A DNA stretch of 64,000 nucleotides from Nitrosopumilus sp. (GCA_965214775.1 OZ243974.1:1184001-1248000); one strand, 5' to 3'. Shown: positions 27,836-48,158, numbered from the stretch's first letter. Numbers and translations: made by a program. Notes: generated from the letters alone by a model not told the origin.

Positions 27836-28921
27836 TTACAACTGCAGGTGGGAGCGTTCTCCGAGCAGAAACCTGTGCGCACTGCCTGATCTTGCCGGCT
27901 CGACTACCGAGCCCTGCGCAATTATGCTCGAGTCAATCTCAATCCTCGAGTCAACGGTGCAGTCAGGCATCACAATAGAGTTTTTTATATCACAGTTTTT
28001 TATTCGGCAGTTGTCCCCAATCGAAACATCTGGCCCTATGCGTGCCGCAGGCCCTATGTGACAATTCCTTCCGACTATTACGGGCCCGGTGACAAGGGAG
28101 TCCCGAGAGACTGTGGTGCCCCTGCCAAGAACGATGCCATCGTTGACCGTAGCATCCGAATCGATCAAGAACTGGTTCTCCGTGCCGATCGAGCCCAAGA
28201 CCAGCTTGTTTGCATGTATGACATCCTCGGGGGTTCCGGTGTCCTTCCACCACCCCGTAACGGTGTCATACCCGATCTTTTGGCCCCTCCGCAGTGACAG
28301 ATCCAAGGCGTCGGTAATCTCCAGCTCCCCGCGCCAGGAAGGCCTGAGATCGTCGATCACGTCAAAAATTTTGGGCGACAGAAAATAGATCCCTATGACG
28401 GCAAGGTTGGAGGCGGGGCTTTTCGGCTTTTCGGTGATCTTTTTGATCATGCCTAGATGATGCTCTCCACCGTCTAGCTCCGCAATTCCAAACCGCCCCG
28501 GATCATCCACCTCGCAGAGAAGAACCATCGCGTCCAGCTGCTGCTCTGAGCCGGAGAATCTTCGGGCATAACCGTCAATGCTTTTCCTCAGGACGTTGTC
28601 TCCAAGATAGACGATAAACCGGTCATCTCCTACAAAGTCCCTGCACAGCCCTATTGCATGAGAGATTCCTGCGGGCCTGTCCTGGTGGATGTAGGTTATC
28701 CTGACTCCGAATTTCTGCCCGTCGCCATAGTACTCCTTGACCTTTCCGGGATAGGCATCCCCGGTGACTATTCCAATCTCGCTTACTCCGGCCTGCTTGA
28801 GGTCTTCTAGGGCATACTGGGACATCGGCTTGTTTGCAATGGGAAGCAGTTGCTTGGGACCCGTATGCGTCAGGGGCCTCAGCCTCGTCCCGTGGCCCCC
28901 GTGAAGAATGATCCCTTTCAT
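27836..28921 (-). CDS. rmlA: Glucose-1-phosphate thymidylyltransferase, long form with hexapeptide tail
   Basis: GGHGTRLRPLT, KQLLPIANKP, YLGDN, PSWRGELEITDA, WKDTG. Confidence 0.88.
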   Translation of the reverse strand: MKGIILHGGHGTRLRPLTHTGPKQLLPIANKPMSQYALEDLKQAGVSEIGIVTGDAYPGKVKEYYGDGQKFGVRITYIHQDRPAGISHAIGLCRDFVGDDRFIVYLGDNVLRKSIDGYARRFSGSEQQLDAMVLLCEVDDPGRFGIAELDGGEHHLGMIKKITEKPKSPASNLAVIGIYFLSPKIFDVIDDLRPSWRGELEITDALDLSLRRGQKIGYDTVTGWWKDTGTPEDVIHANKLVLGSIGTENQFLIDSDATVNDGIVLGRGTTVSRDSLVTGPVIVGRNCHIGPAARIGPDVSIGDNCRIKNCDIKNSIVMPDCTVDSRIEIDSSIIAQGSVVEPARSGSAHRFLLGERSHLQL

Positions 28922-28999
28922 CTCTTGTCTATGCGGCGGCCCCTCAATATAAAATCAGTCACACATGACGCAACGCGTGCGGGCGCAAAAGGCGGCCCC

Positions 29000-30019
29000 T
29001 CAGAGTATTTGCCCGTTCATCGAGACCGAGTCGTAGGTGGCCTTTGCCCCAAGAAGATGTTTGTACCACTCGACGGTTTTTGTCTGCATGGAATCCGTGG
29101 TCTTTCCGGACTTTAGTGCGGCATAGATCTCCTGGGTGCCATCGGCTACGGTCCATCTCGTTTTATATCCTAGCGTGTCACGGATCTTCTCAAAACTGAT
29201 CTTGTAGGAGCGCAGATCCGGATCCCCGTACCATTGTTTTTTAAAGGGGATCTTGATTGCTCTGGCCACCTCTTTGGCCAGCGGCAGTATCTGGTAATTT
29301 TGGGTGTCTGATCCCACGTTGAATATCTGGCCGCCGACCCTCTCCTTTGGCGATTTGATTACGGTTACATAGGCTTCGGCAACGTCTTTTACATGGATAA
29401 ACGGCCTCCATTGCATCCCATCCCGCATGATTGGAATTTGCCTGTTCTTGAAGAAGCCAAGCACCATCCCGTTTACTGCCAAGTCAAACCTCATCCTAGG
29501 AGACAGTCCAAAGACGGTGGCAAACCTCAGCATGGTTACCGTAAACTTCCTGTCGGCAAGCCTTTTGGCGGCAATCTCTGCCTTCCTGTTGGCCTTGGCA
29601 TAGGTGGTCAGCGGGTTGATTGGGGACTTTTCGTCCAGCTCCCCGTCACGGAAGCCATAGATGCTGCAGCTTGATGCCAAAACGTACCTGTCCACGCCCT
29701 GTTGCTTGGCCAGCTTTGCCACCCTTGCGCGCCCCCTAAAGTTGATATCCATCGTTCTCTTGGGATCCAGCTCCCCGCTGGGATCATTTGAGAGTGCGGC
29801 CAGATCCATAACTACATCGATGCCGTCGAGGATTTTCTTATCAAAGTATCTGGTGTCATCTTGCACAAGCCTTAGTTTCGGGTTTTTGGAGACCTGGTTT
29901 AGTTTGTCCTTGCCGAAATAGAACCTGTCAAGCACGGTCACACGGTATCCCTCCCCGAGTAGCCTGGGGACAAGCACGGTTCCGATATAGCCGCCTCCGC
30001 CAGTCACCAAAACCCGCAT
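29000..30019 (-). CDS. NAD-dependent nucleotide-sugar epimerase/dehydratase
   Basis: TGGGGYIG, LAALSNDP, ASSCSIYG, RMRFDLAVN. Confidence 0.88.
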   Translation of the reverse strand: MRVLVTGGGGYIGTVLVPRLLGEGYRVTVLDRFYFGKDKLNQVSKNPKLRLVQDDTRYFDKKILDGIDVVMDLAALSNDPSGELDPKRTMDINFRGRARVAKLAKQQGVDRYVLASSCSIYGFRDGELDEKSPINPLTTYAKANRKAEIAAKRLADRKFTVTMLRFATVFGLSPRMRFDLAVNGMVLGFFKNRQIPIMRDGMQWRPFIHVKDVAEAYVTVIKSPKERVGGQIFNVGSDTQNYQILPLAKEVARAIKIPFKKQWYGDPDLRSYKISFEKIRDTLGYKTRWTVADGTQEIYAALKSGKTTDSMQTKTVEWYKHLLGAKATYDSVSMNGQIL

Positions 30020-30054
30020 GATCCATAAAAAGGCAGTATGTATTTAATTGGTAC

Positions 30055-30136
30055 GAGTTTACCCCTTAGCCGCCATTGCTGTCTGGAGCCTTTATGATCA
30101 CGCCTGCTGCGCCGTATATCGGAGAGGGGTAAACTC
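30055..30136. mobile_element. MITE family D (GAGTTTACCCC...GGGGTAAACTC)
   Basis: Related copies at ~13556-13640 and 61391-61473. Confidence 0.7.
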
Positions 30137-30183
30137 TTGCAATCAGTACATGCCGGAATCAGAACCGCCACGGTTATGTATTG

Positions 30184-30201
30184 TGGACCCCCCGGGATCC
30201 G
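30184..30201 (-). other. Putative attR carrying the displaced tRNA 3' end
   Basis: Minus strand CGGATCCCGG-GGGGTCC-A; shares the core CCCCCGGGA with 42407-42415 and pairs fully with the tRNA 5' GGGCCCC. Confidence 0.6.
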
Positions 30202-30235
30202 TCACAATATTGTACCTTTTATGCGTTCCAGGAAC

Positions 30236-31513
30236 ATGGAGATCAAGATGAAGCTTACGATGGAGGAATTTGAAAGGGTGGAACAGGCGGCCCCGCTTGT
30301 CCTGTTCAACCAGGGGATCAAGGCGGAGATGACGCGCGAAAAGTACACCCGCACGCTACGCCAGGTGCTCTGCGGCATGCTAGAGGACATACTGGAGGGA
30401 GACCTTGAGGGACGCGCAGAGCAGCTGGTACAGCACGGCCGGGAGGATCCGGCATGGGTGCGCGACCTGCTGCTGAGCCTCTCGCGCAAGCTGCTCGAGC
30501 GGACCAGGCTTGCCCCCGACAATCCAGAGTATCTCAGACCGGTCTCGTTTGGCGGGTATTTCAAGCCGGTCAAGAAGCTGCTGGATATGAACGACGTCGT
30601 GATCCCGTGGAAGCGCATATACGCCACGTTTCCCGAAGAGACCGGCCTCCCGTCGTCCTCCCGCGGATGGACGCGTGCCGAGGTACAGAAGATGCTCAGG
30701 TTCTGCCGGGGGCCGCTTGAGCGGGCAATCATACTGGTGGCCGCAAGCTCCGGGATCAGGATAGGGGGTTTTGAGGAACTCGAGTGGAGGGATCTCGTCC
30801 CCGTGTACAGGATGCCGGACGGCACACTTGAGATGGGGGATGCAGCAGACGGCAGGGAGATGGACGGCGCAGGGAACCCGGCCTGCGCAAAGCTGCAGAT
30901 ATACCGCGGATCCGGCGAGAGCTATCCGGCCTTCATCACGCCGGAGGCGTATGCGGCGCTTGACGACTATCGTGCAGAGTGTGCCGACAGGATTGGACGA
31001 AAGCTGCTCCCCGGCGATCCCCTGTTTATCGGATCCGGCTGCCTCCCGAGAAGGCTGTCGGTAGTCATGATAAAAAAGCACATACTCGACGTGCTGACAA
31101 GGTCGGGTCTCCGCGGCAGGCCCGGCCCCGACGGCAGCAGAAGCAGCAAGACGCGCAGACACGACGTCCCGATGACCAACGGGTTCAGGCGGTTCTGGAA
31201 CAAGACGTGCAAGGAGGCCTCCTCCCGGGAATCCCCGCTGTCCAGCCTGATCAAAAAGGAGTACATGATGGGCCACTCCGGGCTGGTAAAGCTTGACCGC
31301 AACTACTTCAAGACCCACACGCTGGAGCTTGCCGAAGAGTACCTCCAGGTGGTGCCGGCCCTCACCCTGGATGACGCGGCAAGGCTGCGCATGGAAAACG
31401 ACCTGCAGGCGCAGAGGATAGCGAGTCTGGAGGACGAAAAGGGCGCAGAGATTGCCGACCTGCGCCTCATGGTAGAGCAGCTTGCAAAAAGGATAGGGCC
31501 AGACGTGAAATAG
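30236..31513 (+). CDS. Tyrosine recombinase/integrase
   Basis: SSGIRIG (R), NGFRRFW, MMGH, DRNY catalytic motifs; C-terminal coiled coil; start uncertain (30137/30236/30248). Confidence 0.9.
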   Translation: MEIKMKLTMEEFERVEQAAPLVLFNQGIKAEMTREKYTRTLRQVLCGMLEDILEGDLEGRAEQLVQHGREDPAWVRDLLLSLSRKLLERTRLAPDNPEYLRPVSFGGYFKPVKKLLDMNDVVIPWKRIYATFPEETGLPSSSRGWTRAEVQKMLRFCRGPLERAIILVAASSGIRIGGFEELEWRDLVPVYRMPDGTLEMGDAADGREMDGAGNPACAKLQIYRGSGESYPAFITPEAYAALDDYRAECADRIGRKLLPGDPLFIGSGCLPRRLSVVMIKKHILDVLTRSGLRGRPGPDGSRSSKTRRHDVPMTNGFRRFWNKTCKEASSRESPLSSLIKKEYMMGHSGLVKLDRNYFKTHTLELAEEYLQVVPALTLDDAARLRMENDLQAQRIASLEDEKGAEIADLRLMVEQLAKRIGPDVK

Positions 31514-32130
31514 GGCCCTTTTATGGTACCCGCGTCTTGTGTGCATGAACGGTAACAACAGGTGTCCTGTCTGCAAGGATGACCTAGACAGGCACACGGA
31601 CAGGGACCTGGCAACGTGCGCGTACCGCATGATCTCGGACTGACTGGCATCCATACATGCTGGCTCCCGTTTTTACTACACTTACTTTGCCCGTGCTCTG
31701 TATGAGGTATACGACTTTGATCGGCTGGTGGGCGTGTATGAAGGAGCCAATTTCTGCTGCAAGGCTTTGGGCGTGGCTGAAAACCAGGGCGGCCTGACCG
31801 GCCATCCTTCAGGCATTCTGTCTTGCCGCATAGTCTTGCCTGAAGTTTGAAATTTGGCAAAAAATCACCAGGATGATCAGCGGATCCCCGGCCAGGAGGG
31901 CCAAGGATCGTTGGTGGTGGGAGATTGCCCCTGGATGGCATTGCCTGCCGGGGTCTTGATGATCATGTCCTCACATTGCATCCTAGGGAGGGGGCAAGCT
32001 CTTGCCTTGGCGATCCCCCCCGTGATGTCTGCATTTATCCTGTCTGAGTTCTCCTCGGGCAGGCAGCAGTGGGGATTTTCCTAAAGCGTCAGAGGCCGAG
32101 CCGGATGACCGCAATGCAACACCGCAATCG

Positions 32131-32209
32131 TCCCTGTTACTGGCAACAGTTGCCCACTAGCGGGAACTTTTCTTCCCTGTTACTGGCAACAGTTGCCCAC
32201 TAGCGGGAA
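32131..32209. repeat. 36-bp direct repeat, two copies, with internal hairpins
   Basis: tccctgttactggcaacagttgcccactagcgggaa at 32131 and 32174. Confidence 0.9.
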
Positions 32210-32346
32210 TCAGTAGAACGCCTGTGTCTGAAGACACGGCAAAACGCCACGTTTTGACGATCATCTGATCCAGAGCAGTGAGCAGGGCACAAAGATCCAT
32301 GGGGAGCCAAACAAGAATGAGAAAAAAGATGGGGTATGTGCAATCG

Positions 32347-32564
32347 TCATTTGATCTCCGGCCTCGAGAGCGGATCAAAGCCGGGATCATCAAAGGGATT
32401 GTCGTGTCTGGGCCTGGTGTCAGCACAATTTTGCCGCCAAGGTCGTGGAACCGTATGTGCTCGCCTGGTCTCAAACCCAGGCTTTGTACCATCACGGGCG
32501 GAACGACCGCAAAAAATGAAGAGTTGTCCTTGATGCTGAGCCTTCACTCATGTATCTTTTCCAT
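32347..32564 (-). pseudogene. AbrB/MazE/SpoVT-like DNA-binding protein pseudogene
   Basis: MEKIHE*RLSIKDNSSFFAVVPPVMVQSLGLRPGEHIRF...; in-frame TGA and a probable frameshift; similar to 33391-33684. Confidence 0.65.
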
Positions 32565-32599
32565 GCCATCAGCAAATACCGGAGATTCGTTTAAGACTG

Positions 32600-32696
32600 T
32601 GGTGCCAATGGCGCCAAAAAACGGCGCCAAAGGTGCGTTTGGTACCTATCCCACAGGGGCCAAAGGCGCCAAAAAACGGCGCCAAAGGCCCCAATC
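32600..32696. repeat. Degenerate 9-bp GGCGCCAAA repeat cluster
   Basis: ggcgccaaaaaacggcgccaaagg occurs twice, plus variants. Confidence 0.8.
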
Positions 32697-33033
32697 TCTG
32701 AGGGCCAGTAACGGACTTTCAACTCGCATTAATACACAAAACACGAAAAACGAGACCATGACGTCCGGGTCCCCTGACCCCGACAGTCCCATGGGACGAC
32801 GGAGTCGTCCCAGACCCTAGAACCTACCTGGGTGAAGAACTTCCCCGGACTCCATCGAACCCGGCGACCGTCCCCGGATCGACGAGACAAAATCATACCT
32901 ACGAACCTAGAATCATTACAGTCAGCCACAGATGACTGATCAGAACCTCATAATGGTGTCATGTCAGGAGGCAGTACCAGAATGTCAAAAACATGACGGG
33001 AATCAAGAACATGAAAAACAGAGCTTGTCAATT

Positions 33034-33138
33034 CTGAGGGCACTGGCTATTTCCCTATCTATCCTGTCATATCATATCATACATCTCAGAATCCTTTGAA
33101 CCTTTTGATCATCAAAAACCTACAATTTTTAATCATTC
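33034..33138. promoter_or_regulatory. Conserved non-coding block, copy 1 (oriT/ori-like, function inferred)
   Basis: 24-bp identity gctatttccctatctatcctgtca with 36001-36024, plus flanking similarity. Confidence 0.5.
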
Positions 33139-33390
33139 ATTGACTGCCATCGGATCAATCCGAGGAGATTGCCTTCCCGAGGACATGACGGGCCTTGTCG
33201 CCTGTGGCTACAGGATGCCCGACAGGCAGAGTCCGCAGCCCCGGATAAAGCCGTCCCGGGCATGTCAGGCACGGCATGACAAAGTGGGAAAACTTGGCTT
33301 AGCAGTGTCACGCGTGGTCAGGTAACCCAAAGGTCCGCGAGATTCTCGCCGGCCTTGAAAAAAAAGAAAGGCGGGGTGTAACGGCAGGCG

Positions 33391-33684
33391 TCATTTGATG
33401 TGCAGCTTTTTGAGCTTTTCTGCAGGCAGATCCGCCTCTTCCATCATCTCGTCCAGGACCCTGTCGTACTTGGTCTTGCTGCCTTTCTTTGAGGAAGTGC
33501 GCTGGGTCTGTATGGGGATCAGCTCCATCCGATCCTCAAAATTCACAAACTCGACGAGCTGGCCGCTTTCGATACCGTGGGCATCCACCATGCTCTTTGG
33601 GATGACGACGATGGTGCTGCTCCCGTATCTGTACGCCCTTCTGTACTGCTTTTTTTCTGTCATGCTCTTGAATCTGTTTTTCAT
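33391..33684 (-). CDS. AbrB/MazE/SpoVT-family DNA-binding protein
   Basis: YGSSTIVVIPKSMVDAHGIESGQLVEF swapped-hairpin signature. Confidence 0.8.
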   Translation of the reverse strand: MKNRFKSMTEKKQYRRAYRYGSSTIVVIPKSMVDAHGIESGQLVEFVNFEDRMELIPIQTQRTSSKKGSKTKYDRVLDEMMEEADLPAEKLKKLHIK

Positions 33685-34310
33685 TTAAAACCAGTCTAAT
33701 TTCATGATTCTTGCCATTTTCATAATTTTTGGTATCGTTGTTTTCACTACTCTCACTACTTTTCAAATCCATACTTTCACTACTCTCACTACTTTTCAAA
33801 TCCATACTTTCACTACTCTCACTACTTTTCAAATCCATACTTTCACTACTCTCACTACTTTTCAAATCCATACTTTCACTACTCTCACTACTTTTCAAAT
33901 CCATACTTTCACTACTCTCACTACTTTTCAAATCCATACTTTCACTACTCTCACTACTTTTCAAATCCATACTTTCACTACTCTCACTACTTTTCAAATC
34001 CATACTTTCACTACTCTCACTACTTTTCAAATCCATACTTTCACTACTCTCACTACTTTTCAAATCCATACTTTCACTACTCTCACTACTTTTCAAATCC
34101 ATACTTTCACTACTCTCACTACTTTTCAAATCCATACTTTCACTACTCTCACTACTTTTCAAATCCATACTTTCACTACTCTCACTACTTTTCAAATCCA
34201 TACTTTCACTACTCTCACTACTTTTCAAATCCATACTTTCACTACTCTCACTACTTTTCAAATCCATACTTTCACTACTCTCACTACTTTTCAAATCCAT
34301 ACTTTCACTA

Positions 34311-35416
34311 TAGCAACGGTCATAAGTAATTGAGGGCTTTGACCGGCGATCTGTAAATGTACTTGTACATGCTAAGGTGGGCAAACGACACCGTCCTGTA
34401 ATATTCGGATATGGCATGCCGTAGCTCGCTGATTTTCCTGTACACTATCCCCCTGAAAACAAAATGCTTGCCCAAGTTCCAGCATTCTTCCACGATATTG
34501 AGGTACGGCGATCCTTTCGGGATCATTATCAGTTTGACATAGGGATGGTCGACCAGATATTCTGCGACATCAGTAGATCTGTGCACACTCCACCTGTCGC
34601 AAAAGACGGCAACCTTACCAAACTTGGCGCGCAGCGCCTCCAGACATTCTATGAACTGCACCGACGTAAAGGATCCCGTAAACGTCCTGAACAACCTTCT
34701 GCCGTCTTCTGCGATGCTTCCAAACACGGCCACCTTTGTGTGGTCTCCAGAGTACGATGCCACGCTTCTGGTGCCGACCGGACCCCACACGTATCTGTCA
34801 TATGCGCCCTGCACGAAGAACGCCTCATCAGATGACACCAGCGTAAAACCGTCGTTTTTCAGGCACGGAATACGCACGTTTTCAAGATACCACTGCCACG
34901 AGTATACCGAGCTTGGGGTGGCATGGTTGACATGTATGTTTTGCACCTTGCGGCGCGACAGGCCATGCTGGCGCATCATTCTCCGGACATGCTCTATGCT
35001 GTATTGTGTCCCGGTGGCATCCCTTATGTCATCGCGTACCGTCATGACATCGGTACTTTTGCATGCAGTAGACAGATCCATTATGGCTGCAATACTTTTC
35101 CTGTCCACCTTTGGCCTGCATCCGGAACGGGGAAGATCCCGGAGACCGTCTATGCCGCCCTCCGAAAACCTCGCCAGCCAGTTACGCACGGAATTCTCAC
35201 TGCACCGGATCTTTCTTGCAGTCTCGGGTACGCCCATGTCGTCTTCTAGCACAAACATCAGCGCCATGATCTTCTTGTAGACTTTGGCATCCTTTTCTTT
35301 GCGCATGGCCTCTGACAGGATGTCTGTTTCTTTTGCCATACATACTGCGCCAGTTACGTGATCATTATACTTTTCGAATGACCTTGTTTTGGCTCAAAGA
35401 CTTATGCTCGTTGCTA
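34311..35416 (-). mobile_element. IS630-family element C, TA duplication
   Basis: TIR TAGCAACG..CATAAGT; the repeat unit is restored when the element is removed. Confidence 0.95.
34320..35339 (-). CDS. IS630 transposase
   Basis: HTH, SDEA, CDRWSVH, PKGSPYLNIVEECW. Confidence 0.92.
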   Translation of the reverse strand: MAKETDILSEAMRKEKDAKVYKKIMALMFVLEDDMGVPETARKIRCSENSVRNWLARFSEGGIDGLRDLPRSGCRPKVDRKSIAAIMDLSTACKSTDVMTVRDDIRDATGTQYSIEHVRRMMRQHGLSRRKVQNIHVNHATPSSVYSWQWYLENVRIPCLKNDGFTLVSSDEAFFVQGAYDRYVWGPVGTRSVASYSGDHTKVAVFGSIAEDGRRLFRTFTGSFTSVQFIECLEALRAKFGKVAVFCDRWSVHRSTDVAEYLVDHPYVKLIMIPKGSPYLNIVEECWNLGKHFVFRGIVYRKISELRHAISEYYRTVSFAHLSMYKYIYRSPVKALNYL

Positions 35417-35987
35417 TACTCTCACTACTTTTCAAATCCATACTTTCACTACTCTCACTACTTTTCAAATCCATACTTTCACTACTCTCACTACTTTTCA
35501 AATCCATACTTTCACTACTCTCACTACTTTTCAAATCCATACTTTCACTACTCTCACTACTTTTCAAATCCATACTTTCACTACTCTCACTACTTTTCAA
35601 ATCCATACTTTCACTACTCTCACTACTTTTCAAATCCATACTTTCACTACTCTCACTACTTTTCAAATCCATACTTTCACTACTCTCACTACTTTTCAAA
35701 TCCATACTTTCACTATTTTTTGCCCTATGGTTTCCACTCCCACACGCATCAAACCTCTCGCATTACACCACACAGTCACAAAAAACGAGACCAAAGCACA
35801 CCGAATCATTCCGACGGAACGGTCTCCCCACGGGAGCCCTTAGCATCCCCTCCTTGATCTGGGACATATTCATCGTCCCAGAAACTCTACGACAATTGAG
35901 GGAGTCCTCCCCTCAAACTCCTCAACACACCGGTGACTCAAATTATCAGGAATCATGACAGGAGTCAAATGACATAACACAAGAATG

Positions 35988-36094
35988 TCTGAGGGTATTA
36001 GCTATTTCCCTATCTATCCTGTCACGATATACAGTACGTCTCGGAATCTTTTGAACTTTTTGCCCCTCAAGATTCATGATATTTTTAATCATTC
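35988..36094. promoter_or_regulatory. Conserved non-coding block, copy 2
   Basis: Homologous to 33034-33138. Confidence 0.5.
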
Positions 36095-36629
36095 TTTGGT
36101 TATCGTCAGATCATTTGAGAATATTATCCTCTAGGTTCCGTAATATGACATTGATCGACACAATCATGGTTTTTTCTGATGATAACTGGCGATATTGTAT
36201 CATGTCGGTTTGTCTTGGATTCGAGAAAAAAATAGCTCATCCGTTCCAGATGTCTCTTCTCCCCATCCTTGAGTTTAAGACACGCCAAGACTTTTGCTGT
36301 AATCGCCGCCCTCATTTTGATTATCCACCTTCATATCTAAAAGCCGTTTCCGGAGCCAAATTTTTTGATTTGGAGTCATGAAAAAATAATCCGACTCTCA
36401 GTAACCTTGTCATGTTTTCTGATGGTATCTTTTGCCTCAGAATGATTCCTGGAATTTTTTGGATTTTCATTATTTTTCACGCACGGATATGCCTTCCGAG
36501 CTATGGAAAAAAGTGCAAGATGCCCGCCGGATTCAGGACGCCTGAAAAGGGAGGCAAATCTGTTGAAAGTAATGGTGCATGGCAGGCAGTGCCAATACAG
36601 CGTGTTTGGTTTGAGACAGGCCTGACACC

Positions 36630-36764
36630 GAGACTGTCGTCTAATTCATAAGAATTGCTGAAAATCATACGGTGTCGTCTGGACTAGACGTGCAAAGGGA
36701 GTGGAAATTCGGAGAAATGTGCAGGTTGAGTCAAGCAAGGGGAACTACGTGACGACCCCCCCCC
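36630..36764. mobile_element. MITE family C (GGGGTTGTCGCCTAATTC ends), degenerate
   Basis: Related copies at ~47601, 56845-56976 and 58652-58783. Confidence 0.65.
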
Positions 36765-37025
36765 TCCACTGCGACGGGTTCATCGGGTTCTGCAACGAGT
36801 GCAGGACGTATTATTCGCTGGATATTGGGTGCGCCGGGATGCCCACGACGGCGCAGAGCCGGGATGCCGCAGATGCGATCAGGAAAAATGGCCCAAAATG
36901 GACGGAGATGGACACCAATGACTAGCGAGCATGATTTTCATATAACACAATGTCTGGCCAGCAAGAGCGTAATCTCACACACTACGCGGCGGCAGCCTTT
37001 TTAACTACATGCCTGTAGAGCTGCC

Positions 37026-37964
37026 ATGATTAGACGCTTTTCCGTAGGACTCTTTCTTGTTCTGGCTGTAGTGGCCCTTACTGCCACCGCGCACGCAGAG
37101 GTGCCGCCCCCACTAAAGCAGCTTGCGGCAGGCGTCTCTCCAGAGGACATCCGGTGCAACCACGACAGGATCCTTGTGATGCGTGACGGCGGCTCCCCTG
37201 CGTGTGTGTATGCCGAGACGGCGCAAAAAAAGGACTGGCGTACGGTAAACACAGCAAGCACGGCACCGTCAGCTACCGATTACGGCGAAGTCCACGAGGC
37301 CGTCATAAACTCGATTCGGATGGGGGATGTAGGGGAGCCGGTAATCCTCAACGTGACCATGATCAACCACACCCCGGATGGTTCGTGGTCCTCCCATGGG
37401 GAGTTCGTCGACAAGAACTTTTCGCTGAGAATAGGGGTGCCGGACTCTTTTGAGGTGGACGAGTCCCAGGAATACTTTGGAGGAATGAGGGGTGTAGACT
37501 CGTGGCCTCCAAATTATGTGGTATATTTCGGGATCGACGAGAGCGCCGACAGGCTTGACATGGAAAACCTGACATTCATCCCCACCGAGGCCGGCACATA
37601 CTGGATGAACATACAAAACAAGACTGCGACTGATAGGGTCGGGCACTACTACATATGGTTTGCAATCGACGAGTCGGGCTCGTACTGGTCATACGACGAA
37701 CCCCCGAAGCCGGCGGCCCCTCCTGAGCCCCCTACCCCAAAGAGGGACTCGCCCACCATGACTGCCGTGCAGCTTACAGACTCCGAGGTAAGGGAGTTTC
37801 TGCAAAAGCTGTCCGCAAGACACGGCACGGAGGTCACCCTTGACAATGTGCCGCAGTACATCTCCGAGGACGACGACGTCTACCTTATGAAGAGCGCCGA
37901 GAAGGTAAACGACAGGTGGGAGGATATACTGCTGTTCTTCAGGGACGTGCCATATCGTGGATAG
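37026..37964 (+). CDS. Secreted/surface protein with a Nitrosopumilaceae-type N-terminal motif
   Basis: Signal peptide, then PPLKQLAAGVSPEDIRC...SPACV. Confidence 0.8.
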   Translation: MIRRFSVGLFLVLAVVALTATAHAEVPPPLKQLAAGVSPEDIRCNHDRILVMRDGGSPACVYAETAQKKDWRTVNTASTAPSATDYGEVHEAVINSIRMGDVGEPVILNVTMINHTPDGSWSSHGEFVDKNFSLRIGVPDSFEVDESQEYFGGMRGVDSWPPNYVVYFGIDESADRLDMENLTFIPTEAGTYWMNIQNKTATDRVGHYYIWFAIDESGSYWSYDEPPKPAAPPEPPTPKRDSPTMTAVQLTDSEVREFLQKLSARHGTEVTLDNVPQYISEDDDVYLMKSAEKVNDRWEDILLFFRDVPYRG

Positions 37965-40900
37965 GTGGCCGGGTTTCTTCGCCATCCTGCTGGCAGTTCC
38001 TCTTGGCGGCCACGCCCTTGCAACCGACACGTTTGACACAATGGGCCTTGTGAACATAGAAGATGTCAGGGGGGACGGATATTCATACACCGAGCTCATC
38101 TTTGACGCCCAAGTGTGCCTCAAGATATTCGGAAGCTCCTCTTACCTGCAGTTTGCAGGCGAAAACAGAGACGCCTGCACGCACATAACCGGCAGCAGCT
38201 GGTACTCCCTGTCCGACGTCGAGCTGCCAGACAACCCCACAAGGGTGCAGTATGTTCTAGTGACAAACGGGGAGCAGATGGACGTTCGGGACAGCAACAA
38301 CGACTACCACAAGATCGCCGATCCAGTCACGGAACTAATCTATTCCGGCTATAGACTCAATCACAACATAGTGGTGCCCTCTGAACCGAGCAATGCGCTG
38401 TGGCTTTATCATGACTGGATGACCTTCACCAGATTTGTCGAAAGTGAGTTTGGCAAGACGATGGATCTTGGTTTGACCGTCATGTATGAAGAGGGCGAGT
38501 TTCCTGGAAGCAACTACAAAGGTAGAAACAGGGTAGTCACTCTTCAGGGTGAAGGACTACATGAACCTCATGATAATGCCATTGATGACCAATGGATAGT
38601 ACTACATGAATTCTCTCACCATCTGATGAACGAGGCATACGATGATCACTTTTCAACCTACAAAAGTTATCCTCATGCCTGCGTCGATGAAAACTCGCAG
38701 ACCATTGACCATTACATCCACAAGGCAAGCAACGGCAAATGCGCGTTTTCAGAGGGATTCGCCAACATGATGCCTCATCTAATCCTGGATGAAACCGTAA
38801 TAGAAGTAAAAACCTCCGACTATACGTTTGACATAGAAACCCCGGAATATATGGAAGGCAACGTGGTGATGGACATCGCGGAGGGCGTCGCTGTAGAAGG
38901 CAGGGTGGCTGCCGCCTTTTTTGATCTGCTGGATCTGGGAAACGGCAACGACGAGCGCGTTACGGAGGACAAGGGCGACTTTTGGGAGGTCACCGAAGTC
39001 TTCCAGCTAGGCATCGCGCCCGTTGTCGGCGACTTTTATGAGAACTGGAAGGATCGGCACGGATACGACAGTAGGCTGGACAGTATCTACGAGCTAAACA
39101 CGTTGTCTGCCGTCCTGAGAAGCAGAGACGTGATCGAGGTAGAGGATCCGGTCGTCTCACCCTCCGGCATCGTCCTGAGTTGGGACGCGCCCGCTACCGG
39201 CCCTCCACCTGAGTTTTACGAGATCCTGAGATCCTCGTCACCGTTCGTGTCCATTGCAAACGTCACCTCCACCACATACGTGGACGGCGACGTCCTGCCG
39301 TCGACCACCTACCGGTACCAGATCATCCCCCACTCCAACTACGGGCCAGGCACGCCTTCGCTGGCCGTCAATGCAACCACGGCCGACACAGTGTCACTGG
39401 CAATAACCGCGCCGCCGGACGTTACGGTGGAGGCCACAGGAGTCCTGAGCACCGTCAGTATAGGGACTGCCACGATAACCGGTGGTCAGGATCCTGGTAC
39501 GACGATAACAAACGATGCCCCCGTCTCTGGGTTCCCGGTAGGCAACACCACGGTAACGTGGACCGTGACTGACACCTTGAACATGACGGCCACCGACATC
39601 CAGACAGTGACGATACGGGACACGGCGCCGCCCCGGATCGCCGTACCGGCAGACATCACGACCGAGGCTTCTGGTGTGCTGACTATGGTATCCATCGGAC
39701 AGGCCACTGCCACCGACATTGCGGATCCGGATCCGGCAGTAACAAACGACGCACCGGAATCGTTCCCGCTCGGCGATACGGTAATCACATGGACTGCCAT
39801 TGATTCCTCCGGCAACGCGGCCACTGACATCCAGACTGTTACGATACAGGACACGACACTGCCGAGCATAACCGCACCGCCAGATGTCACAACCGAGGCT
39901 TCCGGCGTACTGACTGTAACATCCATAGGGCAGGCCACCGCCATCGACACTGCAGATCCCGACCCGGCAATCACAAACGACGCCCCCGAGTCGTTCCCGC
40001 TCGGCGATACAGTAATCACATGGACTGCCACTGATTCTTCCGGCAATGCTGCCACGGCCACACAGACCGTGACGATACAGGACACCACGCCGCCGAGCAT
40101 CACCGCACCTGCAAACCATACGGCCGAGGCAGCCGGCATCATGACGATCCTGAATGTCGGCGACTATGGGACTCCCACCGTATCTGACATTGCCGATCCC
40201 AGTCCCACAATCACAAACGACGCACCAGAGTCGTTCCCGCTCGGCAACACCACGGTAACGTGGACTGCCGCCGATTCCTCTGGCAACGAGGCGACGGCCG
40301 CCCAGACTGTTACAATACAGGACACCACGCCGCCTGCCATCTCCGGCCTGCGCAATATATCCGTGGATGATCCGGCGGGCCGTGGAATGGAAGTCAGCTA
40401 CGATGCGCCGACTGCCGCCGACCTCGTGGACGGGGTCGTGGCAGTATCATGCACGCACGAGTCCGGATCGACGTTTGCGCCCGGATTCACCGAGGTGTCA
40501 TGCACGGCGACAGACGGCTCTGCAAACTCGCAGAGGGACTGGTTTATCATACACGTGGACGCCTCAGACGCCATCCTGGACGTCTTCCAGACCGTGAGCA
40601 CGGGCCGGTCCACGTGGAGTGTTACGGGCCCGGACAGGGTATTCGCGGGGCAGACCTTCGAGTATACGGTAACCCTCGAGGACGGGGCGAGGCCGAGGCT
40701 GGAGTCGCTTGCCGTGTACAGCACGGCGCCGGAACGGGACCTCGGATGGTACGATCCCGATACGGACTGTCAGACCGTGATATGCGCGGGGTTTCCCGAA
40801 CAAAAGCACGACACGTACAAGATAGCCAGTGACGAGGACTCGCCGTATACTGCCATGCACAACAAGATGAAAAAGTCCAGATCCAGCCATACCATACTGC

Positions 40901-42105
40901 TGCAGCCGGCAGCCGACGCGCCGGCGGGCACACAGGCCACAGTCGGCATGATGGACGGTAACAACAACCAGGTGGGAGGCATACCCGTGACGGTGCTGCC
41001 GCCGTCCGCAAAGACGATAACGGGCGAGCGCGCCACCTGGAGGATCACGGGCCCCGACAGGATATTTCCGGGACAAACCTTCGAGTATACGGTAACCCTT
41101 GATGGCACAAGGCACCAGCACGACGCCCTTGCAATATACAGCAGCTCGCTTACAGTGGACGACTTTGGGGGACTCGCGGATGACTCTGCATGCGGCACGA
41201 CCGTATGCACGGACTTTCCGGGGCAGCGGCGCCGCACGATGGAGCTTGACAACCACGCAGGCTCGGTATACGACGTGAGGTATCACACGATCAACGCGCC
41301 CGGCTCCCAGTATACGATACTGCTGAGGACGGCCGACGACGCGGAGGCGGGAGGCACGTTCAGGGTCGGCCTGGTGGACGGGGACGGAAGTCCGATGGGC
41401 AGCATACGGGTTACGATCGCCGATCCCGTGGCCGTAACGGCCCCATATGAGGAGCTCGTGGCAGGCCTGTCCTTTGAGGGCAGCCTGGCCGATATCACGG
41501 GGGACAACAACGGTACGGCTGCAGGGGATGTCACGTACGTGCCTGGCAGGATAGGCAGGGGGCTGCAGCTTGACGGCTCTACGAACGTCACCCTTGCAGG
41601 GGAGGCCGACTTTGACTTTGGGCGGACCGACCCGTTCAGCATTGCGTTCTGGCTCAGGCAGGACGTGCCCGTCAACAACAGCACCATGATAATGTCCAAG
41701 GTAGAGTCGTTCGGTCATACCGGCTCGTACGTGTGGATATGGGGAGGGGCGCCCAACAGGATCCTGCTTTCGATACACGACAACTCCACGTTCATAAACG
41801 TGCACACCCCCAACCACCTGAACATGTCAGACGGTGCATGGCACCATATCGCATTCACGTACGACGGCTCGGGTGTAAAGGAGGGCCTGAACGCGTATAT
41901 CGACGGCGAGCACCGGGACTATGACGGCTACCGTAGGGGCCTAGGACTGGAAGGCAATACAACAAACGACCATGCGTTTACGGTGAGAACCACCAGCTGG
42001 GGGGACCCCGACAGGATCGACTCGGTGCTCGACGAGTTGCGCGTGTATGGCGCCGAGCTGTCGGCCTGGCAGATGCGGTTGCTGCATGCGGCAGGCCTCG
42101 ACTAG
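37957..42105 (+). CDS. Large secreted HExxH metalloprotease-like protein with FN3, HYR-like repeats, a duplicated unknown domain and LamG
   Basis: LHEFSHH...FSEGFA; LSWDAP...Y.Y.I; about five TNDAPESFPLGDTVITWTA-type repeats; DGAWHHIAFTYDG. Confidence 0.85.
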   Translation: MDRWPGFFAILLAVPLGGHALATDTFDTMGLVNIEDVRGDGYSYTELIFDAQVCLKIFGSSSYLQFAGENRDACTHITGSSWYSLSDVELPDNPTRVQYVLVTNGEQMDVRDSNNDYHKIADPVTELIYSGYRLNHNIVVPSEPSNALWLYHDWMTFTRFVESEFGKTMDLGLTVMYEEGEFPGSNYKGRNRVVTLQGEGLHEPHDNAIDDQWIVLHEFSHHLMNEAYDDHFSTYKSYPHACVDENSQTIDHYIHKASNGKCAFSEGFANMMPHLILDETVIEVKTSDYTFDIETPEYMEGNVVMDIAEGVAVEGRVAAAFFDLLDLGNGNDERVTEDKGDFWEVTEVFQLGIAPVVGDFYENWKDRHGYDSRLDSIYELNTLSAVLRSRDVIEVEDPVVSPSGIVLSWDAPATGPPPEFYEILRSSSPFVSIANVTSTTYVDGDVLPSTTYRYQIIPHSNYGPGTPSLAVNATTADTVSLAITAPPDVTVEATGVLSTVSIGTATITGGQDPGTTITNDAPVSGFPVGNTTVTWTVTDTLNMTATDIQTVTIRDTAPPRIAVPADITTEASGVLTMVSIGQATATDIADPDPAVTNDAPESFPLGDTVITWTAIDSSGNAATDIQTVTIQDTTLPSITAPPDVTTEASGVLTVTSIGQATAIDTADPDPAITNDAPESFPLGDTVITWTATDSSGNAATATQTVTIQDTTPPSITAPANHTAEAAGIMTILNVGDYGTPTVSDIADPSPTITNDAPESFPLGNTTVTWTAADSSGNEATAAQTVTIQDTTPPAISGLRNISVDDPAGRGMEVSYDAPTAADLVDGVVAVSCTHESGSTFAPGFTEVSCTATDGSANSQRDWFIIHVDASDAILDVFQTVSTGRSTWSVTGPDRVFAGQTFEYTVTLEDGARPRLESLAVYSTAPERDLGWYDPDTDCQTVICAGFPEQKHDTYKIASDEDSPYTAMHNKMKKSRSSHTILLQPAADAPAGTQATVGMMDGNNNQVGGIPVTVLPPSAKTITGERATWRITGPDRIFPGQTFEYTVTLDGTRHQHDALAIYSSSLTVDDFGGLADDSACGTTVCTDFPGQRRRTMELDNHAGSVYDVRYHTINAPGSQYTILLRTADDAEAGGTFRVGLVDGDGSPMGSIRVTIADPVAVTAPYEELVAGLSFEGSLADITGDNNGTAAGDVTYVPGRIGRGLQLDGSTNVTLAGEADFDFGRTDPFSIAFWLRQDVPVNNSTMIMSKVESFGHTGSYVWIWGGAPNRILLSIHDNSTFINVHTPNHLNMSDGAWHHIAFTYDGSGVKEGLNAYIDGEHRDYDGYRRGLGLEGNTTNDHAFTVRTTSWGDPDRIDSVLDELRVYGAELSAWQMRLLHAAGLD

Positions 42106-42401
42106 CCTGTGCGATCGCGGCGAGCCAAGCCTGCGGCAAGAGATTGCACTGGCCAGCAAGGATTCTCGAGGTACTTCATGATCAGACACCTCTGCAAACG
42201 GTCGATGACATTCAGGAGTTTGTGATTGCAGGTATACCACACAGACGGCACTGCCTGCCGGGGCCTTTGCTGCCGCGCATTCCGCGCGGTATCTTCTGGA
42301 TGGGGTAAGACTCTTACCTCCTATCGTGTATTGCTGCACAATACCTAAATCAGGCGTGTAAAACTCAATTGTTGGAACGTAAAAAAGATCCAATATGGTT
42401 G

Positions 42402-42472
42402 CGGTACCCCCGGGAATCGAACCCGGACCTCTCGGATTTCAGGCGAGTGTACTACCATTATACTAGGGGCCC
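42402..42472 (-). tRNA. tRNA-like gene with GAA anticodon and Ala-like body; mismatched acceptor and anticodon stems (possible pseudo-tRNA)
   Basis: GGGCCCC TA GTATAATGGTAGTAC A CTCGC CTGAAAT CCGAG AGGT CCGGG TTCGATT CCCGG GGGTACC G. Confidence 0.7.
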
Positions 42473-42536
42473 ACAAGGTTTAAAATGTAACATTCTCTAT
42501 AATCCTTGGGTTTCAGGCGAGTAGTGCTAGCGTTAT

Positions 42537-43601
42537 TCTATTGTACGAAAATTAGGTCGCACTAATTTGAGGAGGATTGCAGGGGATTACTTTAGGCTTT
42601 ACCGATCAAGAAAACCGATGGTTGTAAGGCTCGAGGCAAAGCAGATCAGATACGCAGTGACGCAGTGTGCAGGGGGACGAAAGCCCTCGGAGGTGGCCCC
42701 GGAGATAGGCGTCACGACAAGGCACGTCCAGCGGATGTATGCCCGGTTCAGGAAGACAGGCGACACGCACCACGTGCCGCTCAAGCCGGGAAGGAAAAAG
42801 AGCGCCCCGGTTCCCGACGGGGACGTGCGCGCAGTCCTGGAGGAGTACAAACACAGTGCAGCAGGGGTGGTTCATACGGCCAAGAGGCTGCGAAGGCAAC
42901 TCGATATAAGCTACTACGAGGTATACAGGATAATGAAAGAAAACGGGCTGGTGACGCCATCGGCTGCAAAATCAATGCCCAGAAAATACGTCCGTTTTGA
43001 GCGCAAATACTCCAATGCCATGTGGCACGTGGACTGGCATACCATGAAGGATCCGCGCTTTGCAGGGCTCAATTTGGTCACGTTCCTAGACGACTCGTCC
43101 AGGTGCGTGACTGGTGCGGGCCTGTTCAGGGAGGCCACCTCAGAAAACGTCGTGGCGGTCCTGCGGCAGGCCGTGGCCCAGTTCGGCGCGCCTGCCACCA
43201 TACTCTCAGACAACGGCAAGTGCTTTGTCGGGGCGCGCTCGGATCCGAAGAAGAAGAAGAGTCCGCCCAAGGGCGGATGGAGGCCCACTGCCTTTGAGGA
43301 GGAGCTGCTCAACTGCGAAATCGGGCTGATAAACTCCAGGCCGTATCACCCGCAGACCAATGGCAAACTGGAGAGATTCCACAGGAGCATCGAGGAGGAG
43401 ATATGGAACCACAAGAGTCTGTCTGCATACATCGACTACTATAACGAGGACAGGCTGCACTGGTCGCTTGACATCGACAACTACGAGACGCCGCTGCGGG
43501 CATTCTCCGACAGGGAGGCCACAGAAGCGATCAGGAAAAACAACCCAAGATGGATGGAGGAGGACATTGGTGATGGTGCGACATAATTTTCATATAATAC
43601 A
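42537..43601 (+). mobile_element. IS481-family element a, copy 1 (17-bp TSD)
   Basis: Imperfect TIRs TCTATTGTACGAAAATT / TGTATTATATGAAAATT; agtagtgctagcgttat on both sides. Confidence 0.95.
42618..43586 (+). CDS. IS481 transposase (rve integrase core)
   Basis: WHVD, LDDSSR, LSDNG, PQTNGKLERFH. Confidence 0.93.
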   Translation: MVVRLEAKQIRYAVTQCAGGRKPSEVAPEIGVTTRHVQRMYARFRKTGDTHHVPLKPGRKKSAPVPDGDVRAVLEEYKHSAAGVVHTAKRLRRQLDISYYEVYRIMKENGLVTPSAAKSMPRKYVRFERKYSNAMWHVDWHTMKDPRFAGLNLVTFLDDSSRCVTGAGLFREATSENVVAVLRQAVAQFGAPATILSDNGKCFVGARSDPKKKKSPPKGGWRPTAFEEELLNCEIGLINSRPYHPQTNGKLERFHRSIEEEIWNHKSLSAYIDYYNEDRLHWSLDIDNYETPLRAFSDREATEAIRKNNPRWMEEDIGDGAT

Positions 43602-43836
43602 AGTAGTGCTAGCGTTATACTAGCCTTTTTTTTAATTAAAAATAACAAGTTCTAGCTGGATCACCTATGATGGTTAGTCCCCGCCCGGTTTTTTCGGGCT
43701 TTAAAACAGCGCGGTTTTTTACGTCATGTCCGATGCAAAGGGATTGCTGCAGGAGCTGGCAATCGAGATGATACGGGAGATCAGGCTGCACGGCTCCCTC
43801 AGGAGGCCGCGGTTCCCGAGATACAGCAGGTTCCCC

Positions 43837-44653
43837 GTACAACATCAGGTCCTTTTTATACTGACAAGCCAACTTTTTTCCAAGAACTTTTTGATCATTT
43901 CGCATCATCTGTTGTGACAGACTAGATACGCTGTTACTGACACATCCTTTGTACATGCAAGACTTACTGACGCCGTGCATACAACAGATTGGCATACGGC
44001 ACTTGCCATGCAGTCAGAAATTGCTACACTTGCAAGGCGTTGTCAATTGGCAGACTTGCCTACACGGTCAGATCTTCGGACATGAAGCTACGGGTTACGC
44101 CGTCCCGTAGGCGCCAGACGGATCATGTTGTTGTAGGAGCTGCTGCTACTGGTACGACGGCCGTCCGGTCCCGGCGTACCGCTCCCCTGCCTGCGTCATC
44201 ATCGGCGGCAGGCGGCCACACCGGCGGCGGCCCGGGACACTTAAAGACGCTGTATCTTGTACCGTCCGTATTGACAAGCGAGGACAGCAGGCGCATATCA
44301 TCATTATTATTATCATTATTATCGCCTGCTTCTGCAAAGACATCCCAGCCCGGATCCCGCAGGTATTCCAAGAGTCCACCGGCAGGATGTATGTTTTGCT
44401 TGCGGCATGTCATCGAGAACGTCAGCAGCGCAGAAGCCGTCTTTCTTTCACCGTCAGTTACGATCTTGTGGCGCGCATTGCGCTGCGGTATGATCCCGTC
44501 GCGTATGCACCGCTCCGTATCGTTGTTGTGCAGCGGCATTCCCCGATGCGCCAGACACGTAAACATGTTGGGCATGGCGTTTTGCATGTGTGTACGCACG
44601 TGATCGTCCTCATACGGGCTGATTATTTTGTATGCCTCCCTGGAAAGCTCCAT
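43837..44653 (-). mobile_element. IS66-family element, 3' part
   Basis: HNNDTERCIR motif; ~40-bp TIR GTACAACATCAGGTCCTTTTTATACTGACAAGCCAAC matches the end at 56025. Confidence 0.88.
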
Positions 44654-45718: not shown

Positions 45719-45897
45719 CGCCTATGGTATCCCTACAATTATTTTTGTACGAGGCCCCCCTCGCCGGACGCGCTAATCCCCAACCACACCAAGAATGCAG
45801 ACGAGTTTGGCAGGCTACACGGCAACGCCAGAGGGGCTAGCGCCAATGGGCGGCCTGAGATTGCCTGAACACACGATTTGTAAAGCCTAGAAATTTT

Positions 45898-47778: not shown

Positions 47779-48158
47779 TCTATTGTACGAAAATTAGGTC
47801 GCACTAATTTGAGGAGGATTGCAAAGGATTACTTTAGGCTTTACCGATCAAGAAAACCGATGGTTGTAAGGCTCGAGGCAAAGCAGATCAGATACGCAGT
47901 GACGCAGTGTGCCAAGGGACAAAGGCCCTCGGAGGTGGCCCCGGAGACAGGCGTCACGACAAGGCACGTCCAACGGATGTACGCCAGGTTCAGGAAGGCA
48001 GGCTGTATGCACCACGTGCATCTCAAGCCTGGAAGGAGGAGCGCCCCGGTTCCCGACGGGGCAGTGCGCGCCGTCCCGGGGGAGCACGGGCTGGTGACGC
48101 CGTCGCCTGCAAAATCCAGACCCCGAAAATACGTCCGATTTGAGCGCAGGTACTCCGA
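47779..48158 (+). pseudogene. Divergent, internally deleted IS481-a 5' fragment
   Basis: Left TIR plus N-terminal coding region. Confidence 0.8.

Follow-up and report, generated by a model that had tools for sequence, protein, structure and literature searches.

The window analysed in this study is a 64,000-nucleotide stretch of DNA from Nitrosopumilus sp. (GCA_965214775.1 OZ243974.1:1184001-1248000); positions are counted from its first nucleotide unless they are given as genome positions. The host is an ammonia-oxidising archaeon, and its genome (G000) is a single 2.83-Mb contig. Between 30198 and 42406 the window holds an integrated element that carries a tyrosine-recombinase-type integrase and interrupts the 3' end of a tRNA gene with the anticodon GAA. 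The element probably entered this gene backwards. The features at its two ends were as follows.

30137-30197, minus strand: displaced original 3' end of the tRNA gene (30184-30197) with its native downstream flank, contiguous with the tRNA body in six intact units
30194-30233, plus strand: left inverted-repeat arm and likely integrase promoter region (CTTTTATGCGTTCC, which is kept upstream of homologous integrases)
30198-42406, plus strand: integrated element, 12,209 bp between the core copies; homology to intact tRNA units stops at both points
30248-31513, plus strand: integrase of about 421 aa with a predicted tyrosine-recombinase fold, open and full length (phrog_1, Foldseek, and a homolog, L007, 92% identical over the full length)
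42370-42409, plus strand: right inverted-repeat arm, whose last bases GCGGTACCC supply the mismatched acceptor 3' strand and G73
42401-42472, minus strand: chimeric tRNA-like gene, anticodon GAA (ARAGORN, Rfam tRNA, direct reading and folding)
42407-42415, plus strand: attR copy of the 9-bp core CCCCCGGGA, which on the tRNA strand extends from within the T-loop through the T-stem 3' strand into the first acceptor bases
42473-42540, minus strand: spacer with a promoter-like TTATAG about 30 nt upstream, and a half-copy of the D and anticodon arms upstream of the gene; past an inserted insertion sequence (IS), the remainder of the unit is found at 43602-43649

The gene at 42401-42472 (minus strand) was the only tRNA of the window detected by ARAGORN, as a 72-nt Phe(GAA). 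Its body, from 42472 down to 42416, was host-derived, its last six bases (42401-42406) were element-derived, and 42407-42415 was the shared core, assignable to neither parent. By direct reading, the acceptor had GGGCCCC on the 5' strand and GGGTACC followed by G on the 3' strand, giving G3xA70 and C4xU69 mismatches and a G discriminator. The gene scored 51.1 bits with the Rfam tRNA model, in which pairs 3:70 and 4:69 were marked as non-standard. The reverse complement of 30184-30197 was TCCCGGGGGGTCCA, which reads as CCCGG, GGGGTCC and A. This GGGGTCC would pair 7/7 with GGGCCCC, including G3:U70, and would be followed by an A discriminator. The displaced 3' end shared its strand with the tRNA gene and was located about 50 nt before the start of the integrase gene.

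The window gene was compared with an intact GAA copy (L030) from G041, a related 3.2-Mb Nitrosopumilaceae metagenome-assembled genome (MAG) that was used as the main comparison genome. The intact copy scored 61.7 bits, 10.6 bits above the window gene. Its minimum free energy was -27.5 kcal/mol with a clean cloverleaf, and that of the window gene was -20.4 kcal/mol with a slipped acceptor. In this best fold of the window gene, the acceptor slipped by one base, one A was bulged, a G.U pair was re-formed at position 3 and the T-stem lost one pair. A T-run was present 17 nt downstream of the end of the chimeric gene, within the right arm of the element. Because the normal register combines G3xA70, C4xU69 and G73 and loses G3:U70, the chimeric gene was most likely impaired by the insertion.

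The canonical tRNA-Phe(GAA) of the cell was located elsewhere, at genome 2523874-2523948 (52.9 bits). Its acceptor was GCCGTGG and G followed the anticodon, whereas the target family of the element has A there and an alanine-type acceptor. The window gene was considered as the canonical tRNA-Phe of the cell and rejected, since the acceptor and the base after the anticodon differ even though the GAA anticodon matches. The window gene is an extra, spare member of a multi-copy non-canonical family.

The 9-bp core stands at 30189-30197 (attL, the left attachment site) and at 42407-42415 (attR), and the junctions were placed at 30197/30198 and 42406/42407. Taken alone, the 9-mer is weak evidence for these junctions. 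It had three matches in the window with 0.47 expected, and 1 of 100 shuffles reached three; the third copy (48074-48082, minus strand) was inside an IS fragment and unrelated. Decisive for the boundaries were the intact copies, in which both flanks join into one contiguous unit.

The junction is uninterrupted in six intact tRNA units of about 190 nt; two of these are in this genome and four are in G041, which holds at least four complete copies. For the paralog at genome 2744588-2744660, the body and upstream part matched window 42407-42540 at 80%, and the 3' end and downstream part (genome 2744773-2744647) matched window 30071-30196 at 93.7%; the two matches overlapped by 7 nt on the paralog. 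The bodies of L030 and the window gene were identical, GAA anticodon arm included, and L030 continued ...CCCGGGGGGTCCACAA...; intact copies, L030 included, ended ...CCCGGGGGGTCCA. The unit common to the window and the G041 copy corresponded to window 43649-43602, then 42540-42407, then 30197-30163. A 97%-identical tRNA unit of G041 was in an unrelated context. Joined together, the host parts of the two junctions gave exactly the intact sequence, without gain or loss of a base, and the 9-bp core was all that they shared. Such exactly reciprocal junctions are characteristic of a single conservative, site-specific exchange. If the element were excised precisely, the intact gene would be re-formed, with an attB reading ...GGACCCCCCGGGAATCG....

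The preliminary description of this stretch was largely confirmed at this level. The two acceptor mismatches that it reported, together with G73, were borne out by direct reading and by the Rfam flags. The 7/7-pairing end that it placed twelve kb away, in the same orientation and upstream of the integrase, was found at 30184-30197 (minus strand), and the core that it described as shared was CCCCCGGGA at both sites. An element of the tyrosine-recombinase type interrupting a tRNA 3' end agreed with the boundaries given above and with the fold search. Its expectation that excision would repair the gene and that the score would rise on reconstitution was upheld by the intact copies, given the scores of 61.7 and 51.1 bits. 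Its statement that a tRNA had been damaged held for the mismatched end; it did not hold for an essential tRNA, as the canonical tRNA-Phe(GAA) is encoded at another locus.

The integrase gene started 51 nt from the left junction. Its product matched the PHROG family phrog_1, annotated as integrase, over residues 141-276 (E 7.5e-6). No match was obtained in Pfam (E<=0.01) or NCBIfam (E<=0.1), and no PDB sequence matched below E 0.9. An AlphaFold2 model was built from an alignment of 11 sequences and had a pLDDT (predicted local distance difference test) of 77.8. Foldseek found 29 PDB matches for this model at E<=0.001. Cre, XerA, XerD, lambda Int and Brujita Int were all returned with probability 1.00 and a best E of 3.3e-5, and TM-scores normalised to the target were 0.42-0.52. 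The two-domain fold of the model assigns the predicted protein to the tyrosine recombinase superfamily. Residues R174, R317/R318, H346 and Y356 were invariant in the 11 aligned integrases, within the motifs ASSGxRxGG, NGFRRFWNK, YMMGH and DxNY; by the general motif pattern, rather than by residue-level superposition, they are candidate catalytic residues. The alignment comprised the window sequence and 10 of 26 homolog loci; two references with stop codons or frameshifts were dropped and the rest were left out.

The 26 homolog loci were in public genomes, mostly Nitrosopumilaceae MAGs. ARAGORN placed a same-strand tRNA directly upstream of the integrase gene at 11 of the 26, and the targets were Val(CAC) at five loci, Ala at three, Lys at two and a member of the GAA family at one. 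The distance from the tRNA end to the integrase gene was about 30-50 nt at ten of these loci and 200 nt at the other. No antisense tRNA adjoined the integrase gene at any of the 26. The other end of the element of the closest homolog, L007 (92% identity), was L050, 40.5 kb away in G041; both junctions carried CCCATCCGGTCCACC, and this 15-bp core restores tRNA-Val exactly. At a contig loose end in runs X1 and X2, a tRNA T-arm likewise led into a related element through its left end. The layout of the window was the reverse: the displaced 3' fragment was antisense beside the integrase gene, and the tRNA body was at the far end. A tRNA pointing into the element with its 3' part rebuilt was absent in the window (reverse orientation, two mismatches and G73).

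One homolog locus, L021, carried a frameshifted integrase gene in the canonical orientation behind a GAA family member with an upstream half-copy. The tRNA gene at L021 (2790-2960) ended CAGTTCTA and scored 39.5 bits, and an intact paralog in the same record (L073:5226-5299) ended CAGGTCCA and scored 46.3 bits. Since L021 was hit in addition to the window, the tRNA family is a recurrent landing site.

The two ends of the element were compared with each other and with the genome. The left end (from 30194) and the reverse complement of the right end (from 42409) matched at 21 of 30 positions, and none of 2000 shuffles reached this value. Four left-end copies were found in the genome, that of the window included, with starts at 30194-30203; among them were a copy of 1.46 kb at 583959 (91% identical) and, at 100921, a remnant that adjoins tRNA-Val(CAC). 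Right-end copies numbered seven with that of the window, and all seven lost homology directly after GGTACCC (42409). Window 39724-42409, comprising the last 2.7 kb of a surface-protein gene and the right end, corresponded to genome 411632-408956 (89%) and 1445861-1448551 (84%). The swapped end was also considered as the 3' end of a foreign tRNA. This was rejected, as it is the other arm of the inverted-repeat core and occurs in all seven right-end copies.

Further observations were made on these ends. The solo right end at genome 408956 had the same outside flank as the G041 right end L048, which makes that insertion older than the split of the two genomes. In G041, a right end at L051:1560-1700 was broken after ...AAAAAGGAT and followed by about 110 nt of foreign sequence. 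The missing terminal segment then followed inverted, ending in a GGTACCCCCCGGGAAC junction, with the breakpoints in GGATCC palindromes. This was a second instance of the CCCGGGA core adjoining GGTACCC, and the inverted segment may reflect a site-specific, integrase-mediated inversion. The Laminin_G-containing part of the 1382-aa gene of the element matched at least seven genome loci.

Possible cognate targets were searched in the genome. Except for the window gene itself, none of the 47 parsed tRNAs ended GGGTACC-G. Near-matches to the 15-nt core of the element (one mismatch at 2203563, at least two in the others) were inspected by eye, and none was preceded by a T-arm or T-loop. At the canonical 15-nt core position, the two parental sites of the window agreed at 11 of 15 positions, the first nine of them contiguous. 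Because no tRNA of the genome matches the 15-mer of the element, the event was read as a secondary-site insertion.

The observations are probably explained by a 12.2-kb tyrosine-recombinase element that was inserted backwards in a spare, non-canonical tRNA gene, as an isolated event at a secondary site, the genome being rich in mobile DNA. The circular form of the element would have carried two inverted arms (...GCGGTACCC and GGGATCCGT...) around a near-palindromic overlap, presumably CCCCCGGG. Recombination would have occurred at the T-stem/acceptor junction of the tRNA gene, in the orientation opposite to that normal for the family. The proposed overlap is palindromic but for its middle bases; the tRNA sense strand has CCCGGGGG at this junction, and CCCCCGGG is present on the antisense strand alone. 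Lambda-type systems need identity in the overlap. If such identity is required here, exchange would be possible only in the reverse orientation, as only the antisense strand matches the overlap. Both arms resemble GGTCCA-type tRNA 3' ends, and the arm abutting the gene would then be acceptor-like but ill-fitting.

Off-target integration, one of two options in the preliminary description, fits these results: none of the other tRNA genes called in the genome ends GGGTACC-G, the 15-nt core matches lack a preceding T-arm, and the relatives are oppositely oriented and, where both ends were found, restore their tRNA exactly. Other parts of that description fared less well. An origin of the swapped end as the 3' end of another tRNA was not supported, and the cognate tRNA suggested for it did not appear among the 47. 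An empty site in relatives was found in part, as intact units exist at other loci of G041 and of this genome and none is syntenic.

Several points count against a backwards secondary-site insertion. At 15 of the 26 homolog loci, ARAGORN found no tRNA directly upstream of the integrase; these loci may represent intron-containing tRNA genes, contig ends or other targets. The cleavage points and the overlap are inferred from symmetry, and the circular form before insertion is a putative reconstruction from two junctions only. L021 shows that imperfect 3' ends are not unique to backwards insertion. In the folding model, the bulged-A structure with G.U at position 3 indicates that some function of the chimeric gene may survive. 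No syntenic empty site was found: all intact tRNA units were at other loci, and the orthologous locus of G041, recognised by a flanking epimerase gene, lacked the whole of window 30052-56068, with the rmlC region at most 10 nt after the epimerase gene.

Of the alternatives, functional neutrality of the insertion survives best, and it is unlikely. According to this explanation, the chimeric gene would still give a usable tRNA through the slipped acceptor helix, or the target was a dead pseudogene already. The slipped minimum-free-energy fold does pair all seven 5' acceptor bases, with one bulged A and a G.U at position 3; however, its T stem is reduced to 4 bp, its stability is lower by 7 kcal/mol, and an equal or better fold was obtained for 151 of 200 shuffles. 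The score of 51.1 bits is above the Rfam cut-off of 29 bits and the T-run after the gene is supplied by the element, but the discriminator has changed from A to G. Prior silencing by the IS in the upstream unit may have taken place, yet the body is identical to the intact G041 copy, which argues against pseudogene-like decay.

A second alternative is that no single integration took place and that the arrangement arose by inversion or recombination between element or IS copies, or by an assembly error. The four left-end and seven right-end copies, the very many IS elements of the genome and the locally inverted right-end segment in G041 are compatible with such an origin. In addition, the short-read contigs that were listed are broken at repeats, and both host-flank pieces shown stop at 30106. 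This origin is nevertheless improbable, as the junctions are exactly reciprocal with only the 9-bp core in common, the genome is a single contig, and 0.83-0.84 of the words sampled from 29800-31000 were present in runs X3-X7, which came from two studies. Four contig runs were also compared with 28000-33700. Among the 32 pieces listed, none bridged 30197 and no joint skipped the element, a result that is uninformative on excision.

The excision-controlled switch that the preliminary description had offered, by which the cell or the element would regulate excision to turn the tRNA gene on, is very improbable: the integrase reading frame and both att copies are intact, the integrase is 92% identical to its counterpart in a complete element, the gene left by precise excision would score 10.6 bits higher and the target family is structurally conserved and therefore probably functional, but the arrangement was present in no other genome examined, other family members being read through or, in L021, in canonical orientation; the orientation is not the one typical of this integrase family; Pfam, NCBIfam and PHROG scans recognised no gene resembling an excisionase; an IS insertion and a transposase remnant are present in the element; the many solo element ends of the genome fit decay better than regulation; an IS is already in the upstream unit of the gene; the orthologous G041 locus lacks 30052-56068; and the contigs, which cannot show absence, contained no excised form. 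The sigK skin element and phage regulatory switches are gene-interrupting elements that are excised on cue. The window resembles them in that a gene is split by a mobile element and precise excision would restore it; unlike them, the arrangement is not conserved, has no sign of regulation and has an atypical orientation.

The remaining features of the element and its surroundings were as follows.

30050-30136, no strand assigned: 88-nt high-copy dispersed repeat with many genome matches (74-88% identity), outside the element
32157-32495, minus strand: weak partial second AbrB-type copy (PF04014, E 0.041, below cut-off)
33391-33684, minus strand: AbrB/MazE-type (SpoVT-AbrB) small DNA-binding protein, 97 aa (PF04014, E 3.2e-8, 33.8 bits, cut-off 24.7)
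33583-35720, minus strand: 33-bp tandem array encoding (SESSESMDLKS)n, split by an IS630-like element
34309-35418: IS630-like element with 26-nt inverted ends, carrying a DDE_3 transposase at 34320-35339 (minus strand)
36701-36925, plus strand: remnant of the C-terminal part of a transposase of the rve type; 36861-36950 and 43513-43602 are 81-90% identical
37026-37964, plus strand: 312-aa protein with a WING-49 domain (NF058652, E 6e-13) and, by eye, a signal-peptide-like N-terminus
37957-42105, plus strand: 1382-aa surface-type protein with four HYR stretches, Laminin_G_3 and a weak, sub-cut-off fn3
42541-43601, plus strand: IS with an rve-type transposase (42567-43586), boundaries approximate, sitting in the upstream half-copy of the tRNA unit

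The cargo agreed with the preliminary description, which had listed AbrB/repeat modules and two surface proteins; these correspond to the PF04014 reading frame, the 33-bp array and the secreted or surface proteins at 37026-37964 and 37957-42105. The array had about 31 units (33583-34320 and 35416-35720), perfect over long runs, with a strong C-over-G skew, and was upstream of the AbrB-type gene. No replication gene and no excisionase was recognised in the element in the Pfam, NCBIfam and PHROG scans. A second, identical copy of the IS at 42541-43601 was present at 44652-45719. The 88-nt repeat looked like a miniature inverted-repeat transposable element or a repetitive extragenic palindromic sequence, and it also followed the intact GAT paralog at genome 2.744 Mb. 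The window as a whole (1-64000) was a surface-glycan gene island, with glycosyltransferases, sugar-nucleotide enzymes, rml genes and two PMT-Laminin_G proteins. It was crowded with IS630, IS110, IS66 and rve-type IS copies and fragments. Besides the element and the tRNA unit, the 26-kb stretch 30052-56068 contained at least four rve-type IS copies and genes for an AAA_14/DUF4143 ATPase, a PMT-Laminin_G protein and a glycosyltransferase.

The element was compared with known site-specific systems. Lambda-type integration at secondary att sites relies on a match mainly in the short overlap, with degenerate arms. The window is similar, with 11 of 15 core positions identical and the first nine contiguous; unlike those systems, no cognate primary tRNA for the window element copy was found in this genome. 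In Cre/lox and FLP/FRT sites, including those with symmetric spacers, orientation is set by the asymmetry of the spacer alone. The inverted arms of the window element around a short overlap, which would be palindromic but for its centre if the cleavage points are placed correctly, resemble this arrangement, and the direction of insertion would be dictated by the strand that matches; in contrast, its arms are alike at only 21 of 30 positions. In Thaumarchaeota, tRNA genes harbour integrated mobile genetic elements of the tyrosine-recombinase type in their 3'-distal part (Krupovic et al. 2019, PMC6563490). That study gives att repeats of at least 8 bp, the median being 17 bp, and reports IS insertions within elements (PMC6563490). 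Like the elements described there, the window element has a terminal integrase and direct att repeats, and its 9-bp repeat is within the reported range (PMC6563490). It differs from the elements described there in that it is backwards, the gene is not rebuilt and the target is a non-canonical extra tRNA.

The element adds one more member to the known class of tRNA-targeting integrase elements, and the insertion itself is ordinary. It would be a natural example of how a nearly palindromic crossover lets an element enter a tRNA gene backwards and damage that gene. This bears on the prediction of att sites and on the reading of 'damaged' tRNA genes in MAGs. The target tRNA family is a more interesting lead than the element: it is multi-copy and structurally conserved, and combines alanine-type acceptor stems with hydrophobic anticodons.

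Members of this family were present in this genome with anticodons GAT (2744588) and CAG (1617531), and in G041 with GAA, AAG (two copies) and GAG. Two other genomes of the genus also had GAA copies; a DNA search matched 3 of 151 genus genomes, the one of the window counted. Nine intact members were aligned, excluding the chimeric gene of the window and L021. Paired bases occupied 95.2% of the stem cells in this alignment, and 10 of 21 pairs had changed on both sides. The covariation score was 0.573, compared with 0.239 in shuffles (0 of 500 reached it) and at most 0.15 in slid registers. The innermost anticodon-stem pair was unpaired in 7 of 9 members. The cloverleaf of the family is held by compensatory changes.

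Apart from G3:U70, the acceptor stem was variable. G3:U70 was present in 8 of 9 aligned members, and the ninth, the GAT copy with one extra G, has G3:U70 in its own ARAGORN register; A73 was present in all nine. Of the 47 tRNAs parsed from the genome, Ala(CGC), Ala(TGC) and two family members were the only ones in which the script flagged G3:U70. After an off-by-one ARAGORN call was corrected by eye, Ala(GGC) and an odd gene at 2746342 also had G3:U70. This odd gene (G000:C1:2746342-2746417) was 1.7 kb from the GAT paralog and had the acceptor GGGCCGG/CCGGTCC-A, exactly of the tRNA-Ala type with G3:U70. ARAGORN gave it the anticodon UCU with an irregular anticodon arm; the canonical tRNA-Arg(TCT) was at 697625. 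At the loose end in runs X1 and X2, the T-arm preceding the left end of the related element was very like that of the 2746342 gene.

The distribution of the family was examined by a pattern scan of one genome per species, using TTGT, GGG, TAGTNTA, a T-arm and a TCCA end, with G3:U70 built into the pattern. The scan gave 27 matches. Twelve were ordinary tRNA-Ala (TGC nine times, CGC three times; three of the 12 were in Patescibacteria-type bacteria). The other 15 had the anticodons GAA (8), AAG (5), GAG (1) and GTC (1), and all were in records titled Nitrosopumilaceae, from 7 assemblies. A copy of the gene's own 15-nt anticodon arm (at most two mismatches) was present 47-51 nt upstream in 12 of the 15 non-Ala genes and in none of the 11 evaluable tRNA-Ala genes. 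This upstream half tRNA consisted of GGC, a D-arm-like hairpin and an anticodon arm, with the TTATAG box between the half-copy and the gene. It was located at window 42473-42540 and 43602-43649, at L030:1444-1568 and at genome 2744470-2744587. In the members of this genome and of G041, the D-arm part of the half-copy was distinct from that of the gene, and the anticodon part tracked the gene. The neighbours of intact family members included methyltransferases, an aminotransferase, a class-I aminoacyl-tRNA synthetase fragment and IS elements. No common mobile-element context was recognised among these neighbours, and a search of 36 loci for integrases gave one fragment, beside a canonical tRNA-Ala.

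The base pair G3:U70 is sufficient for alanyl-tRNA synthetase (AlaRS), which does not read the anticodon, according to a review (PMC11415595). On this basis, charging of the family tRNAs by AlaRS is a reasonable hypothesis from their sequences. Mistranslating tRNA-Ala anticodon variants are described in the yeast CUG-Ala clade and as human variants (PMC11415595, PMC12084884 and PMC10543346). Like these variants, the target family joins G3:U70 and A73 with non-alanine anticodons; unlike them, it would be archaeal, multi-copy and conserved, with Phe/Leu/Ile anticodons and an upstream anticodon-arm duplicate. No description of such tRNAs in Nitrosopumilaceae was found in narrow literature searches, which is weak evidence for an undescribed family.

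A further possibility, put forward tentatively and rather doubtful at present, is that Nitrosopumilaceae keep a conserved set of class-I tRNAs in which the universal alanine identity set (G1:C72, G2:C71, G3:U70 and A73) is combined with Phe (GAA), Leu (AAG, GAG, CAG) or Ile (GAU) anticodons, that these tRNAs act as standing Phe/Leu/Ile-to-Ala mistranslators or as alanine donors outside translation, and that integrase elements switch members off. If this were true, landing of elements would switch members off individually, backwards in the window and in canonical orientation with an imperfect end at L021. If AlaRS charges these tRNAs and the ribosome takes them, standing Phe/Leu/Ile-to-Ala mistranslators would be encoded in these genomes; alternatively, the tRNAs would be alanine donors kept out of translation. 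If they are charged as the acceptor suggests, the family would be a natural example, from archaea, of mistranslation encoded in the genome, or of Ala-tRNA being used outside translation.

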